Below are positions 21,001 through 24,000 of a DNA stretch of 57,859 nt, one piece after another; positions within the stretch are counted from its first letter, which is position 1; the number at the start of each line of letters is the position of its first letter. Made by a program: the position numbers. This DNA comes from a virus (taxonomy: Duplodnaviria; Heunggongvirae; Uroviricota; Caudoviricetes): the IMG/VR virus record IMGVR_UViG_2880406838_000004. One strand, given 5' to 3'.

Positions 21001-24000
21001 AGGGCGGCAGACTGAACTGTAAGTTCCGCCTGTCAGGCGCACTGACCAACAATCAGTTCGGGCTGGGGATTTATCTGTATACGGATGCTCCCGTTCCTGA
21101 TGGTGTGGCGATGACGGGTACCGGTAATCCGTTCCTGATGTCGTACTTCACTCAGACCACTGACGGCAGAGTGAATCTGATGCATCACAGGAAAGCCGGA
21201 AACACGAAGCTGGGGGAGTTCGGCGATTACGGTAACGACTGGCAGACGCTGGAGCTGGTGTTCACCGCCGGCAGTGCCACGGTTACTCCGAAACTGAATG
21301 GAGTGGCTGGCCCGGCATTCCAGGTTATAAAAGACAGTCTGACACTGTGAACCGCCCCGGGTTTCCTGGAGAGTGTTTTATCTGTGAACTCAGGCTGCCA
21401 GATCATCGTTTCCGATGGAAGCATAATAAGCTTTTTCTGCTTCTGCCGGAGGAGTATGGCCCAGCCTTCCCAGCAATCGTCGATTGTTATACCAGTCCAC
21501 CCACGTTAGTGTGGCCAGTTCCACTTCTGCACGGTTTTTCCAGCTCTTACGGTGTATTACCTCCGCTTTGTAAAGACCATTGATGCTCTCAGCCATCGCG
21601 TTGTCATACGAGTCGCCTGTACTCCCTGTTGATGCCAGTAATCCGGCTTCTTTTAGTCGCTCCGTATAGGCCAGTGACACATACTGAGAGCCTTTATCGC
21701 TGTGATGGATGGTGCCAGACGGACGACGGGCCCACAACGCCTGCTCCAGCGCATCCAGCACGAATGTCGTTTCCATAGACGATGAGACCCGCCACCCCAC
21801 GATGTATCCGGCAAACACATCAATGATAAACGCCACATAGACGAAGCCCTGCCATGTGCTGACGTAAGTAAAATCAGCCACCCACAGCTGGTCAGGTCGT
21901 TCTGCCACGAACTGACGGTTTACGCGGTCGCCTGCGGCAACGGCTTTCCGGCTGATGGTCGTACGGACCTTTTTACCCCGGAGAACACCGGCAAGTCCCA
22001 TAACCGCCATGAGACGTGCCACTGTACATCTGGCCACCCTGATTCCTTCCCGTAACAACTGACGCCAGACTTTACGCACACCGTACACCTGATGATTTTC
22101 ATCGTATACGCGCTGTATCTCTCTCTTCAGCCAGTCGTCGTGCTGCGCACGGGCACTGCGTTTATCCGGATGATGTCGCTGTTGCTGACAATGGTAATAC
22201 GTTGACGGGGCAATATGCAGTTCGCTGCATACCGGTCCGACCCCGTACTGCTCACGCAGCTTATCCAGCAGTGGCATCATTTTTTCCAGAGGCGGTCGAA
22301 CTCCGCCTTCGCAAAATAAGCGGAAGCCTGGCGAAGGATATCGTTACTGCGGCGCAGTTCACGATTTTCACGTTCCAGCTCTTTCAGACGCTGACGTTCA
22401 GCGCTGGTGAGCCCACCATCACCGCCCCCGGTATCCCGCTCATGCTGGCGAACCCAGACACGCAGAGTCTCCGGCGTACAGCCAATCTTTGGGGCAATGG
22501 AACAAATTGCCGCCCACTGTGAGTCATATTCATCCTGACTTTCCAGAACCATACGAATCGCCCGCTGACGGACTTCGGGGGAAAAACGAGTATTTTTAGT
22601 CATCCTGTTTACCTCTTTCTCAGGGAGTTTAGTCTCCAGGATTTCCGGGGCGGTTCACTGGGACTGAATGCGCTGACGCTGACGGATGTTACAAAAAATG
22701 CAGCGTATGGCGTTGAGATAGAAAGTCTGGTGCTGGAGATAAATGCACCGGCAGCATAATAAAAAAAGCCAGCGACTGACCTGAAAAAGAAGACGCTGGC
22801 TAAAAGGCCTTATATGTTTGTAGAGACTTATTTTTCACAGACAGCAATGATGCCTGTCAATATATTATCAATATGCGGATTGTTTCAGTTACAGATGCTT
22901 TATTAAGGAAAAAAACAGCCAGCACTGACTTTCGGTGGAGAGGTGCTGGCTCAAAAGGATAGATGTACTTCACATGTTGCTTCTATATGGCAGTACATTT
23001 TCTGACAGACAGTGACGGATGTTGTCAAGATATTGTGTCATTTATAACCTGAATCGGGGGAGGCCGGAATGTTATCTGGCATTTTTAGCAGAGCCTGAAT
23101 GCCATAATCACGGCTCCCGGAGTTGGCCGTCAGTGGGTGACACTGGCGGCTTTTTTGTTTTCCTTTACTTTCATTTTCTGTCGGCGGTGACGGAGACATA
23201 CATCAGATGGAAAAAATCACAACGGGTGTGTCATACACCACGTCAGCGGTGGGGACGGGATACTGGTTACTGCAGCTGCTGGACAAAGTCTCTCCGTCCC
23301 AGTGGGTGGCGATAGGTGTGCTGGGGAGTCTGCTGTTTGGCCTGCTGACGTATCTGACAAACCTTTATTTCAAGATTAAAGAAGATAAGCGTAAGGCGGC
23401 GCGGGGAGAGTAAAGCGATGAAGAAAAAATACGAACTGGTTGTTAAAGGGATAAATAATTACCCGGATAAGATTACTGTTACTGTGGCACTGGAAATTGG
23501 TGGGTATCCGTCACTGTTGTTGCCAGATGTGGCGATTAGTCTTGACCGTACTGAAGGTGCCACGCTGGAGTTTTACGAAGCTGAGGCGAAAAAGCAGGCG
23601 AAGCAGTTTTTCATGGATGTTGCTGCCGGGTTATGTGAAGGGGATGGTCCGTTGCCGGAAAAGCGGCCCATCATTTTAGAGGCGCAGGATGTGTTGATAA
23701 CCTACAGAGGAAAACTACCGGGAATAATTACGGGTTCTCTGAAGACTCCACCGCTGGCCTGAAGACTTAACATATCCAGGGATTTGAAATCGATAAATCC
23801 TGATAAATATCCATGAACGCAAAAATCAGATACGGCCTGTCGGCTGCCGTTCTGGCGCTGATTGGTGCAGGGGCGTCTGCGCCTGAAATCCTCGACCAGT
23901 TTCTGGATGAAAAGGAAGGTAACCACACCACAGCATACCGTGATGGTACGGGTATCTGGACCATCTGCCGCGGTGCCATCCTGGTGGATGGTAAACCTGT

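Follow-up and report, generated by a model that had tools for sequence, protein, structure and literature searches.

PasA of EPEC E2348/69 is a Northern-validated sRNA that was recovered by RIL-seq and is destabilised in the absence of Hfq (PMC8550237). In the hfq deletion strain of E2348/69, pasA RNA showed a log2 fold change of -2.8 (adjusted p 8e-17), and PasA ranked 12th by number of RIL-seq partners, appearing mostly as the second RNA in its chimeras (PMC8550237). It is encoded on the minus strand from 743499 to either 743415 (85 nt, major species) or 743264 (236 nt, minor species) (Table S6, PMC8550237), and its published seed, GCCAGCACCU, sits in the 5' arm of its terminator (PMC8550237). 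Both pasA and pasC have been described as flanked by a sialic acid esterase gene and a holin gene (Zhu, Shabalina and Storz 2026, bioRxiv 10.64898/2026.05.13.724894). In E. coli O157:H7 Sakai, Hfq-CRAC gave the orphan peaks EcOnc51 in prophage Sp12 and EcOnc52 in prophage Sp4 (Tree et al. 2014, PMC4104026).

Diverged copies of Hfq sRNA genes that lie side by side on the same strand are known from OmrA/OmrB (E. coli) and PrrF1/PrrF2 (Pseudomonas aeruginosa). The two units described here likewise look like such copies, with a promoter-like element and a terminator for each, conserved 3' ends, and differing seeds. At PrrF1/PrrF2, a PrrH-like read-through species spans both copies, as at the pasA locus. 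Unlike either pair, the present units are located in the moron region of a prophage and antisense to the late operon, their seed overlaps the terminator stem, and independent transcription of the second copy is only putative. STnc100/PasD with its anti-sRNAs AgvB and AsxR also consists of short Hfq-binding RNAs, antisense to late transcription, in the same late-operon moron region of the same prophage (PMC4104026), but that module lies upstream of nanS-p and belongs to another sequence family.

The window, by which we mean the whole 57,859-nt stretch of DNA analysed, comes from a prophage of E. coli O111, and the locus is identical in O111 RM9322. Between the 3' end of nanS-p and the holin gene S, the interval very probably contains two tandem leftward sRNA genes antisense to the late operon, here termed unit 1 and unit 2, together with a separate plus-strand terminator (Table 1).

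Table 1. Positions of the features of the pasA locus and its surroundings in the window
Feature	Position	Strand	Details
STnc100/PasD–AgvB/AsxR module	19182-19451		Convergent sRNA module of lambdoid prophages downstream of PR'
nanS-p 3' remnant (SASA-family sialate O-acetylesterase)	22655..22759	+	RefSeq pseudo-CDS, identical O111 RM9322 locus
Unit 1 RNA, ~66-72 nt	22758..22829	-	EcOnc51/EcOnc52 homologue (EHEC Sakai); 'pasA.E2348C_0688.IGR' of EPEC
Unit 1 intrinsic terminator	22758..22801	-	Stem AGCCAGCG/CGCUGGCU, 22767-22774 with 22794-22801; then UUUUUUAUUA
Unit 1 promoter-like element	22831..22860	-	-35 TTGACA 22860..22855, TGT, A-rich -10-like GAAAAA/AAAAAT 22836..22830
PasA sRNA gene, 85-nt major species (unit 2)	22909..22993	-	Zero base differences from EPEC E2348/69 PasA
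PasA (unit 2) intrinsic terminator	22909..22951	-	9-bp stem AGCCAGCAC/GUGCUGGCU, 22917-22925 with 22943-22951
PasA promoter-like element	22999..23028	-	-35 TTGACA 23028..23023; weak -10 TCAGAA/CAGAAA 23005..22999
Weak hairpin GCCGGA...UCUGGC	23063..23090	+	Then AUUUUUAGCA; -9.7 kcal/mol, z -0.5
Strong intrinsic terminator	23125..23161	+	11-bp stem (23125-23151), then UUUUUUGUUUU; -22.5 kcal/mol, z -4.2
Class II (S21-type) holin gene S	23207-23413	+	Right-hand boundary of the interval; RBS GGAG 23192-23195

PasA and the terminator hairpins

Unit 2 is the already-described PasA, and its expression and Hfq dependence would follow from the identical E2348/69 sequence. With window positions obtained as the NC_011601 coordinate minus 720506, the PasA ends at 743499, 743415, and 743264 convert to 22993, 22909, and 22758, respectively. 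The window and the E2348/69 PP2 locus differ at five positions over ~510 bp, none of them within PasA, and no difference was found in strand, flanking genes, terminator, or seed. The published 25-nt PasA Northern probe matched exactly at 22918-22942 and nowhere else, the probes for PasB and PasD had no match in the window, and a covariance model of PasA and PasC matched the gene at 111.8 bits. The preliminary description had proposed the hairpin units as candidate sRNA genes; unit 2 proved to have the sequence of PasA, and unit 1 that of EcOnc51/52 and of the 3' end of the 236-nt isoform. The Rfam/Infernal search that it had suggested recovered no curated family: Rfam 15 gave no match in 22600-23300 at gathering scores and, at E values up to 10, only noise (E of at least 2) with no Pas-family match, and the models for AgvB (RF02702), AsxR (RF02703), and STnc100 (RF02076) were without a match in the same range.

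The genomic context is that of PasA, between a prophage nanS-p and a class II holin gene and antisense to both, and the nanS-p–S interval of NC_011356, the representative PasA phage of Zhu et al. 2026, is 99.6% identical. The nanS-p remnant, which ends with the stop codon TAA at 22757-22759, is separated from its own 5' part by an IS1203/IS629 insertion. Within the remnant, GGTGCTGG at 22729-22736 is the perfect complement of the PasA seed CCAGCACC; in E2348/69, the PasA RIL-seq target motif is present at the 3' ends of both nanS-p genes (PMC8550237).

The unit 1 hairpin (AGCCAGCG...CGCTGGCT) occupies 22767-22801 and the unit 2 hairpin (AGCCAGCAC...GTGCTGGCT) 22917-22951. Each has an A-run in front of it on the plus strand, which in a leftward transcript becomes a U-run behind the stem (G and seven U, 22915..22909, in the case of PasA). 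Both units show the G+C-rich hairpin and immediate U-run of a Rho-independent terminator for leftward transcripts, as had been proposed. Annotation of phage 434 agrees, with two minus-strand terminators and one plus-strand terminator in the homologous places. Predicted folding energies were about -15.5 to -16.5 kcal/mol for unit 1 (z -4.1 to -4.7 versus shuffles) and -20.8 kcal/mol for unit 2 (z -4.9), and neither stability was reached by any of 200 shuffles. Our terminator scan accepted loops of 3-8 nt; given that the loops of units 1 and 2 are 19 and 17 nt, it returned only an inner sub-stem for the former and missed the latter.

A paired G-C to A-T difference between the two stems had been noted and read as a sign of selection on structure. 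The difference is real and is located at the eighth pair, which is G-C in unit 1 and A-U in unit 2. The 9-bp terminator helix was fully paired in all 17 distinct PasA/PasC variants, with double substitutions at three pairs, and its covariation score was matched by none of 500 shuffles, which bears out the selection on structure. The exchange between the units would be one among several compensatory changes by which the seed is altered and the fold of the terminator and Hfq-binding module retained. Stem-loops in the 5' part of PasA, as drawn in the minimum-free-energy fold, were set aside; RNAalifold retained only the terminator helix, and the z-score of the whole RNA was -1.3.

Unit 1 and EcOnc51/52

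EcOnc51 and EcOnc52 have been cited as 'homologues of PasA'. We found that they are in fact the unit downstream of PasA, that is, unit 1 rather than the 85-nt RNA, an assignment that goes beyond the published papers. The 2014 Sakai coordinates are shifted by ~137-142 bp relative to NC_002695.2 beyond ~1.27 Mb and are unshifted at Sp4; we checked this shift with the landmarks AsxR, AgvB1, and STnc100 and then with CLASH read sequences. The Hfq-CRAC peaks of EcOnc52 and EcOnc51 correspond to window positions ~22749-22829, with 5' edges at ~22826-22829, and the RNase E CLASH hybrid reads TTTCAGGTCAGTCGCTGGCTCTTTTT and CATTGCTGTCTGTGAAAAATAAGTC (reads from Waters et al. 2017, PMC5286369) place both RNAs on unit 1. 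Like unit 1, both are on the minus strand and have a predicted Rho-independent terminator, and only two small indels distinguish the sequences. An E2348/69 RIL-seq fragment at 743267-743294, equivalent to window 22761-22788, also lies inside unit 1. Published experiments on the same or nearly the same sequence have demonstrated the RNAs of this locus, their ends, and their Hfq binding or dependence.

The unit 1 RNA comprises a U-rich stretch, a terminator hairpin, and a poly-U tail, which together make up a full Hfq module, and the 236-nt minor PasA isoform ends at its terminator (22758). In the PasA papers, unit 1 features solely as the 3' tail of that isoform; in our analysis it scores as a diverged member of the family, immediately downstream of pasA. 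Unit 1 occurs alone at eight IMG/VR loci and in Sakai Sp4, where an IS629 element with its orfA directed away lies 22 bp upstream of the unit 1 -35. Given that unit 1 is identical in Sp4 and Sp12 and that reads multi-map between them, expression of the unit-1-only locus of Sp4 stays putative.

Diverged tandem copies or a single gene

Two degenerate direct repeats with a period of about 146 bp had been proposed for the interval. The repeats held up in a shuffle-tested alignment, but the fixed period did not: the hairpins start 150 bp apart and the conserved ACAGACAG...TGTCAA blocks 168 bp apart, the two distances differing because unit 2 holds ~18 extra bases. Tandem Repeats Finder reported nothing for a repeat so diverged and indel-rich, and we therefore relied on shuffle tests and a covariance model; an exact-repeat search found only 11-13-nt seeds, 150 bp apart. 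In a gapped alignment covering promoter, RNA, and terminator, 91 of the 109 aligned bases were identical between the units, with a score 8.7 sd above 2000 dinucleotide shuffles, none of which equalled it. The covariance model was trained on PasA and PasC alone, with all unit 1 sequence left out, and it matched unit 1 (22840-22755, minus strand) at 35.5 bits with E 5.8e-5, the E calibration being rough, compared with 15.9 bits for the best background match in the window. Unit 1 and PasA thus look like diverged tandem copies of one sRNA gene, a modest new point that we infer from sequence comparison. A survey of the family concluded that pasA copies are never tandem, the closest pair being 22 kb apart (Zhu et al. 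2026, bioRxiv 10.64898/2026.05.13.724894); the covariance-model match to unit 1 speaks, against that survey, for a diverged tandem sRNA pair.

Each unit is preceded on the minus strand by a promoter-like block. By sigma-70 criteria, both blocks have a -35 matching at 6/6 positions, a spacer of 17-18 nt, and a -10 matching at 3/6 (TCAGAA for PasA and TGAAAA for unit 1); our promoter scan did not return either site. The spacer of the PasA element ends with TGT, and the element is followed after 6-7 nt by the published 5' end at 22993; both the block and the placing of the 5' end recur at the PasC locus. The unit 1 block is collinear with that of PasA, and the 5' edges of EcOnc51/52 fall just downstream of it. 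The 5' end of PasA has been ascribed to cleavage of a longer transcript (Zhu et al. 2026, bioRxiv 10.64898/2026.05.13.724894), but a conserved block positioned exactly at the 5' ends of PasA and PasC, a placement that likewise goes beyond the published papers, would argue for primary transcripts rather than cleavage products. We infer a promoter for each unit on this basis, with activity predicted.

The locus very probably works as follows. A sigma-70-type promoter with a perfect -35 and a weak -10 would start pasA transcription at 22993, and the 9-bp hairpin with U7 would halt most transcripts at 22909, yielding the 85-nt Hfq-dependent PasA. The remaining transcripts would pass this terminator and stop 150 nt farther on at that of unit 1 (22758), yielding the 236-nt minor species. 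Unit 1 would be a paralogue that has diverged from PasA, with a promoter-like block, a U-rich stretch, a hairpin, and a U-tail of its own. Its EcOnc51/52 RNA, which binds Hfq and has been recovered in hybrids with mRNAs on RNase E, may be transcribed from the unit 1 promoter, cut out of the read-through transcript, or formed in both ways.

Our tentative reading is that the locus contains two diverged Hfq sRNA genes in tandem, each with a promoter of its own: PasA and the ~70-nt EcOnc51/52. This view may well be right but falls a little short of an even call. It is also quite possible, if somewhat doubtful, that pasA is a single gene, with unit 1 serving as a back-up terminator and 3' extension and EcOnc51/52 being a stable 3' fragment of the read-through transcript that is cut by RNase E and protected by Hfq. 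Pearl Mizrahi et al. treat unit 1 as the 236-nt minor isoform of PasA with the same 5' start (PMC8550237), and the -10 of unit 1 is weak. An EcOnc51 CLASH fragment at 22849..22825, moreover, starts ahead of the position predicted for the unit 1 start and runs across the putative promoter, which indicates that at least some unit 1 RNA comes from read-through and not from its own promoter. Against a single gene, unit 1 keeps a perfect TTGACA and a PasA-type spacer end, with a spacing that fits the 5' edge of EcOnc51/52, holds the full Hfq module, and survives on its own in the IMG/VR loci and in Sp4.

If the tandem reading is true, it would contradict the published claim that tandem duplication never yields pasA copies, and unequal crossing-over between the repeats would explain the one-unit alleles. 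PasC, which is a one-unit form of the locus with a unit-1-type stem on a unit-2-type body, would then combine the unit 1 hairpin with the unit 2 body, and in the AGCCAGUAC 'PasA-prime' type the nanS-p stop codon would be followed immediately by a unit 2 hairpin. New target specificities would arise in this way, through the exchange by recombination of the terminator arms that carry the seeds.

Plus-strand elements and other functions of the interval

A terminator just before S had been suggested on the plus strand, and a stem with a T-run is indeed present at 23125-23161, its end 46 nt before the S start codon. It is conserved across 47 distinct upstream-of-S sequences with a nearly invariant stem; covariation among these 47 was uninformative, the changes being few and mostly C to U giving G-U. 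As in the lambda tR' paradigm of late-operon terminators overridden by Q, it lies in a Q-dependent unit, just before the lysis cassette, but it differs from tR' in its position far downstream of PR'/tR' and in that its role, as an insulator, is proposed from this analysis. It would most likely stop transcription that is not Q-modified, from nanS-p and other moron promoters, before the lysis genes, and Q-modified late transcription would pass it. The hairpin at 23063..23090 is no more stable than shuffles and is probably non-functional on its own.

It is unlikely that the two minus-strand hairpins act mainly as insulators against antisense transcription from the lysis region into nanS-p, stx, and morons, with the RNAs as by-products. 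Two efficient-looking unidirectional terminators directly after the nanS-p stop codon would suit such a role, and PasA has no defined biological function in the literature. The many RIL-seq partners of PasA, its place as the second RNA in most chimeras, the complementarity of its target motif to the seed, and its Hfq dependence argue against it. A conserved promoter-like block also abuts each terminator, so that the terminated transcripts appear to begin within the units. Nothing in this analysis or in the PasA/EcOnc literature links these RNAs to lysis timing.

We consider it very improbable that the interval acts through the plus strand, whether as 3'-UTR stabilisers of nanS-p, as sites of pausing or processing by which the late transcript would adjust S expression, or as a promoter that drives S. 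The hairpins fold on that strand too, and a RIL-seq plus-strand IGR fragment maps to window 22988-23006, but the plus-strand stems are followed by A-rich sequence with no U-runs, and every published RNA species with sRNA features at the locus is minus-strand. The promoter-like element TTGTCA...TATAAC named in the preliminary description does have its hexamers, at 23022-23027 and 23043-23048; its standing as a promoter did not survive, with a spacer of 15 nt and no hit in the promoter scan, and TTGTCA is more plausibly the minus-strand PasA -35 seen from the other strand. A second candidate, CAGACA-17-TATATT at 22838-22866 (9/12), mirrors the minus-strand block and was likewise rejected as not above chance, two promoter-like matches having been found against a shuffle mean of 1.4. 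Any transcript from here would in addition meet the 23125-23161 terminator before S. Small proteins are scarcely credible: a 30-aa ORF at 22814-22906 (+) and a 38-aa ORF at 22973-22857 (-) are present, but the latter begins at GTG and traverses the terminator hairpin, and the frames would be shifted by the single-base variation in length of T/A runs within the 38-aa ORF and the 2-bp indels in the hairpin loop seen at related loci.

The hairpin units are known sRNA genes, and what is new is only their apparent origin as tandem copies that have since diverged. The sequence by itself had been enough for the preliminary description to pick out a genuine sRNA locus with experimental validation. These findings leave the present view of phage lysis and of sRNA biology as it was. 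Stx1-converting and related prophages of EHEC and EPEC carry the pasA locus, and treating unit 1 as a paralogue of PasA and PasC alters the count of copies and variants in this family and the account of its evolution.

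Identity of the two hairpin units

A preliminary description had reported two hairpins, each followed by a T-run on the minus strand, between the 3' end of nanS-p and the holin gene S. Both hairpins were present, 150 bp apart, and each was more stable than shuffled sequence (z = -4.7 for unit 1, which adjoins the nanS-p stop codon, and -4.9 for unit 2, which lies nearer to S). An A-run precedes each hairpin on the plus strand, and on the minus strand the stem is followed by six or seven U. The described paired G-C to A-T stem difference was located at the eighth pair (G-C for unit 1, A-U for unit 2). 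Tandem Repeats Finder reported none for the two-unit repeat, and a repeat search returned only short seeds 150 bp apart. Gapped alignment of the units on the minus strand gave 91 identical bases among 109 aligned, with a score 8.7 sd above that of dinucleotide shuffles and reached by none of 2000. The collinear blocks common to both units are the U-tail, the stem, a UUUU stretch, and a CTGTCTGT...TTGACA block. The direct repeat is real and degenerate; its proposed length of about 146 bp gives way to a spacing of 150 bp for the hairpins and 168 bp for the CTGTCTGT...TTGACA blocks, the latter because the body of unit 2 contains ~18 extra bases.

PasA, an Hfq-binding sRNA of EPEC E2348/69, is encoded on the minus strand between E2348C_0688 (esterase) and E2348C_0689 (holin), with a major species of 85 nt (743499 to 743415) and a minor species of 236 nt that ends at 743264; Northern blotting validated it, loss of Hfq lowered its level 7-fold, and it stands 12th in number of RIL-seq partners (Pearl Mizrahi et al. 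2021, PMC8550237, Table S6). The Northern probe of that study, GCCAGCACTGACTTTCGGTGGAGAG, matched the window exactly at 22918-22942 and at no other site, and the E2348/69 locus showed five differences from the window over ~510 bp, none within PasA. Given that window coordinates equal NC_011601 coordinates minus 720506, PasA corresponds to 22993 to 22909 (minus), and the minor isoform ends at 22758, in the U-tail of unit 1. Synteny of esterase, pasA or pasC, and holin has been reported (Zhu, Shabalina and Storz 2026, bioRxiv 10.64898/2026.05.13.724894); NC_011356, the representative PasA phage of that study, is 99.6% identical to the interval, and at homologous positions a curated phage 434 record places one terminator on the plus strand and two on the minus strand. 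These matches in sequence and position identify unit 2 as PasA, in line with the proposal of candidate sRNA genes.

The predicted PasA seed, GCCAGCACCU, lies within the 5' arm of the PasA terminator (PMC8550237). At the nanS-p 3' end, the 8 nt GGTGCTGG (22729-22736) are perfectly complementary to the PasA seed CCAGCACC and nearly reproduce the PasA terminator 3' arm. The top RIL-seq motif match for PasA is the same site in both E2348/69 nanS-p genes (PMC8550237).

The PasA entry also lists "homologues in EHEC (EcOnc51/EcOnc52)" (PMC8550237, Table S6). These are Hfq-CRAC peaks of EHEC Sakai with predicted Rho-independent terminators, neither of which was tested by Northern blotting: EcOnc51 in Sp12 (2237479-2237555, plus strand) and EcOnc52 in Sp4 (1181998-1182075, minus strand) (Tree et al. 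2014, PMC4104026). The published coordinates refer to an older Sakai sequence, and we gauged their shift relative to NC_002695.2 by landmarks. There was none at Sp4 (EcOnc05 versus STnc100) and about +137 to +142 bp at 1.27, 1.94, and 3.49 Mb (AsxR, AgvB1, EcOnc06), with an onset between 1.18 and 1.27 Mb (Table S2, PMC4104026); mapping of EcOnc RNAs onto the current RefSeq Sakai record therefore requires a correction of about 137-142 bp beyond this onset. After correction, both peaks fell on unit 1 (window ~22749-22829), a placement settled by RNase E CLASH hybrid reads (Waters et al. 2017, PMC5286369): the EcOnc52 fragment TTTCAGGTCAGTCGCTGGCTCTTTTT is the unit 1 terminator, and the EcOnc51 fragment CATTGCTGTCTGTGAAAAATAAGTC corresponds to 22849..22825 (minus). 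Sp4 and Sp12 carry identical copies of unit 1, and their peaks are nearly equal in signal, as expected from multi-mapped reads. The EPEC entry "pasA.E2348C_0688.IGR", which showed sRNA-like RIL-seq behaviour (PMC8550237), has a fragment that maps to 22761-22788. By sequence, unit 1 is thus EcOnc51/52, which supports the sRNA proposal for this unit as well.

Terminator covariation and probable paralogy of the units

A degenerate pattern of the conserved block, searched against IMG/VR, returned at least 120 stretches, and we aligned the 17 distinct intact unit-2-type RNAs among the matches listed (PasA, PasA-2, PasC, and a variant with a AGCCAGUAC stem). The 9-bp terminator helix was the only structure kept by RNAalifold; the 5' stem-loops of the single-sequence fold were without support in this alignment. 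Standard pairs occupied 153 of 153 helix cells, compared with 14-53% when the register was slid, three pairs had changed on both sides (C-G to U-A, A-U to G-C, and C-G to U-A/U-G), and none of 500 shuffles reached the observed covariation score. The compensatory substitution between the two stems is therefore part of a real pattern. The U-rich stretch, hairpin, and U-tail are present in PasA, PasC, and unit 1, and the structure under selection is the intrinsic terminator and Hfq-binding module.

A covariance model built from the 17 PasA/PasC-type sequences, with unit 1 left out, scored PasA at 111.8 bits and unit 1 (22840-22755, minus) at 35.5 bits (E = 5.8e-5), the next best match in the 57.9-kb window being 15.9 bits. 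A weak match at 48210-48281 (plus; 15.9 bits, E = 0.36), which has a GC-rich hairpin, a U-tail, and partial similarity in the body (CAGGUAUCAGUAUCA), probably represents a further terminator. The BLAST filter of Zhu et al. 2026 required >75% coverage (bioRxiv 10.64898/2026.05.13.724894), so that unit 1 would have escaped detection.

Among the matches listed, about 80 loci have two units with conserved blocks 158-169 bp apart, 28 have a single unit-2-type gene directly after the nanS-p stop, 8 have unit 1 only, and 2 have two units separated by an insertion sequence. Of these 28 single genes, 22 belong to the PasC type and carry the stem of unit 1, AGCCAGCG, and the other 6 carry the AGCCAGUAC stem. 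In PasC, a hairpin of the unit 1 type appears fused to a body of the unit 2 type, the fusion point lying inside the common GCTGGCT(C)AAAA; a true unit 1 with a PasC-type loop occurred at one locus (L105). This pattern suggests unequal crossing-over between direct repeats, of which it is the expected outcome. The probable tandem paralogy of unit 1 with PasA, indicated by the covariance model, goes beyond the cited papers.

Insertion sequence ends lie within or adjoin sRNA units at IMG/VR loci L035, L054, L034, L083, and L046 and in Sakai Sp4 (L126, 631 onward), and the interval resembles a hot spot for insertions. In related prophages, IS629 ends (TGAACCGCCCCGG) are found in terminator stems or T-runs, and an IS3-family end (TGTAGTGG...) lies in the PasA terminator 3' arm, which probably accounts for 'PasA-3', the variant of Zhu et al. 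2026 that has no terminator.

Putative promoters and plus-strand elements

In both units, the minus-strand TTGACA is followed by a 17-18-nt spacer ending in TGT and by an A-rich, weak -10 (TCAGAA/CAGAAA in unit 2, TGAAAA/GAAAAA in unit 1). The PasA 5' end (22993) lies 6-7 nt downstream of the -10, the PasC 5' end is the same homologous base (CUGCC...), and the EcOnc51/52 peaks have their 5' edge (22826-22829) at a similar place relative to the unit 1 -10. We infer that these blocks may serve as the promoters of both units, an assignment that is likewise new beyond the papers. The PasA 5' end is said to arise by cleavage (Zhu et al. 2026, bioRxiv 10.64898/2026.05.13.724894). The long PasA species shares its 5' start with the major species and extends further at the 3' end (PMC8550237, Table S6) and is therefore a read-through product rather than a 5' precursor. 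Arguments against an independent promoter for unit 1 are its poor -10 and one CLASH fragment that starts upstream of the predicted start site, which indicates that at least part of unit 1 RNA derives from read-through.

The plus-strand terminator described just before S was recovered, and together with the 175 bp upstream of S it is nearly invariant (47 distinct sequences among the matches listed), with the exceptions of a variable G-run at ~23056 and T-run lengths. The G-run (23055-23060) lies after the PasA promoter-like block and before the plus-strand hairpin; across otherwise near-identical loci it has ~4 to 9 G, interrupted by A/T, and, T-run lengths aside, it is the sole hypervariable spot in the 175 bp upstream of S. 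Most plausibly, the terminator would keep rightward transcription that is independent of Q from reaching the lysis cassette, and Q-modified RNA polymerase would pass through it, as is established for lambdoid late operons. A hairpin at 23063-23080 was no more stable than expected by chance relative to shuffles. As for the proposed plus-strand promoter-like element, its TTGTCA and TATAAC hexamers are present, with a spacing of only 15 nt. In the PasA promoter spacer, CAGTGACGG (23010-23018) is similar to the plus-strand terminator's 3' arm and, in plus-strand RNA, could pair with the terminator's 5' arm (23127-23135) as an alternative structure; for a 9-mer with a single mismatch at a distance of 108 nt, such a resemblance is likely due to chance.

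Genomic setting and proposed mechanism

The window is 100% identical to the E. coli O111 chromosomes of RM9322 and strain 14614, and the interval lies in the late region of a lambdoid prophage. RefSeq annotation of the identical O111 locus has no feature in 22760-23206, and Rfam 15 gave no match to the interval, whether the cutoff was the gathering score or an E of 10.

Features of the late region and of the interval under study, in window coordinates
Feature	Position	Strand	Remarks
tRNAs			First in late-region gene order
STnc100	19182-19390	plus	Convergent with AgvB; PasD-like, 175 bits
AgvB	19392-19451	minus	Anti-GcvB sRNA; 56.6 bits, just above gathering score
nanS-p 3' remnant	Ends TAA 22757-22759		Split by IS1203/IS629 copy
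Interval under study	22760-23206		447 bp, between nanS-p remnant and S
Unit 1 hairpin	22767-22801		AGCCAGCG / CGCTGGCT
Unit 1 TTGACA	22860..22855	minus
Unit 2 hairpin	22917-22951		AGCCAGCAC / GTGCTGGCT
Unit 2 TTGACA	23028..23023	minus
Plus-strand terminator	23125-23161	plus	Strong; stem 23125-23151 and T-run; -22.5 kcal/mol, z -4.2
Class II holin S	23207-23413		Followed by YdfR-family gene and lysozyme

The convergent STnc100/AgvB pair (19182-19451), in which STnc100 ends two bases before AgvB, lies upstream of nanS-p; this arrangement is a known 'moron-site' module (Tree et al. 2014, PMC4104026). Three identical ALIL pseudoknot matches (9764-9880, 14174-14290, and 22206-22322, minus) mark three IS1203/IS629 copies. 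nanS-p is split at about 21350 and 22640, with one copy ~120 bp before its stop; the esterase is therefore a pseudogene here, with the sRNA locus intact. Elsewhere, the window contains a full-length DicF sRNA (4528-4579, minus; 76.7 bits) and a sok antitoxin RNA (13111-13286, plus; 119.8 bits); the latter points to a toxin-antitoxin locus of the hok/sok type.

The observation of tandem hairpin units is confirmed and its interpretation is supported, the feature having been described before as PasA and EcOnc51/52. Leftward transcription in the lysogen would give rise to PasA; where its termination is leaky, the 236-nt RNA would result, with its end at the unit 1 terminator, and the unit 1 RNA of ~70 nt may arise from its own promoter, from processing of read-through, or from both. 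The two RNAs bind Hfq and would base-pair with mRNAs by means of a seed overlapping the terminator arm, one such site being that at the nanS-p 3' end. Late or nanS-p transcripts that cross the interval are fully complementary to PasA and to unit 1 RNA, and we therefore speculate that prophage induction could titrate both RNAs.
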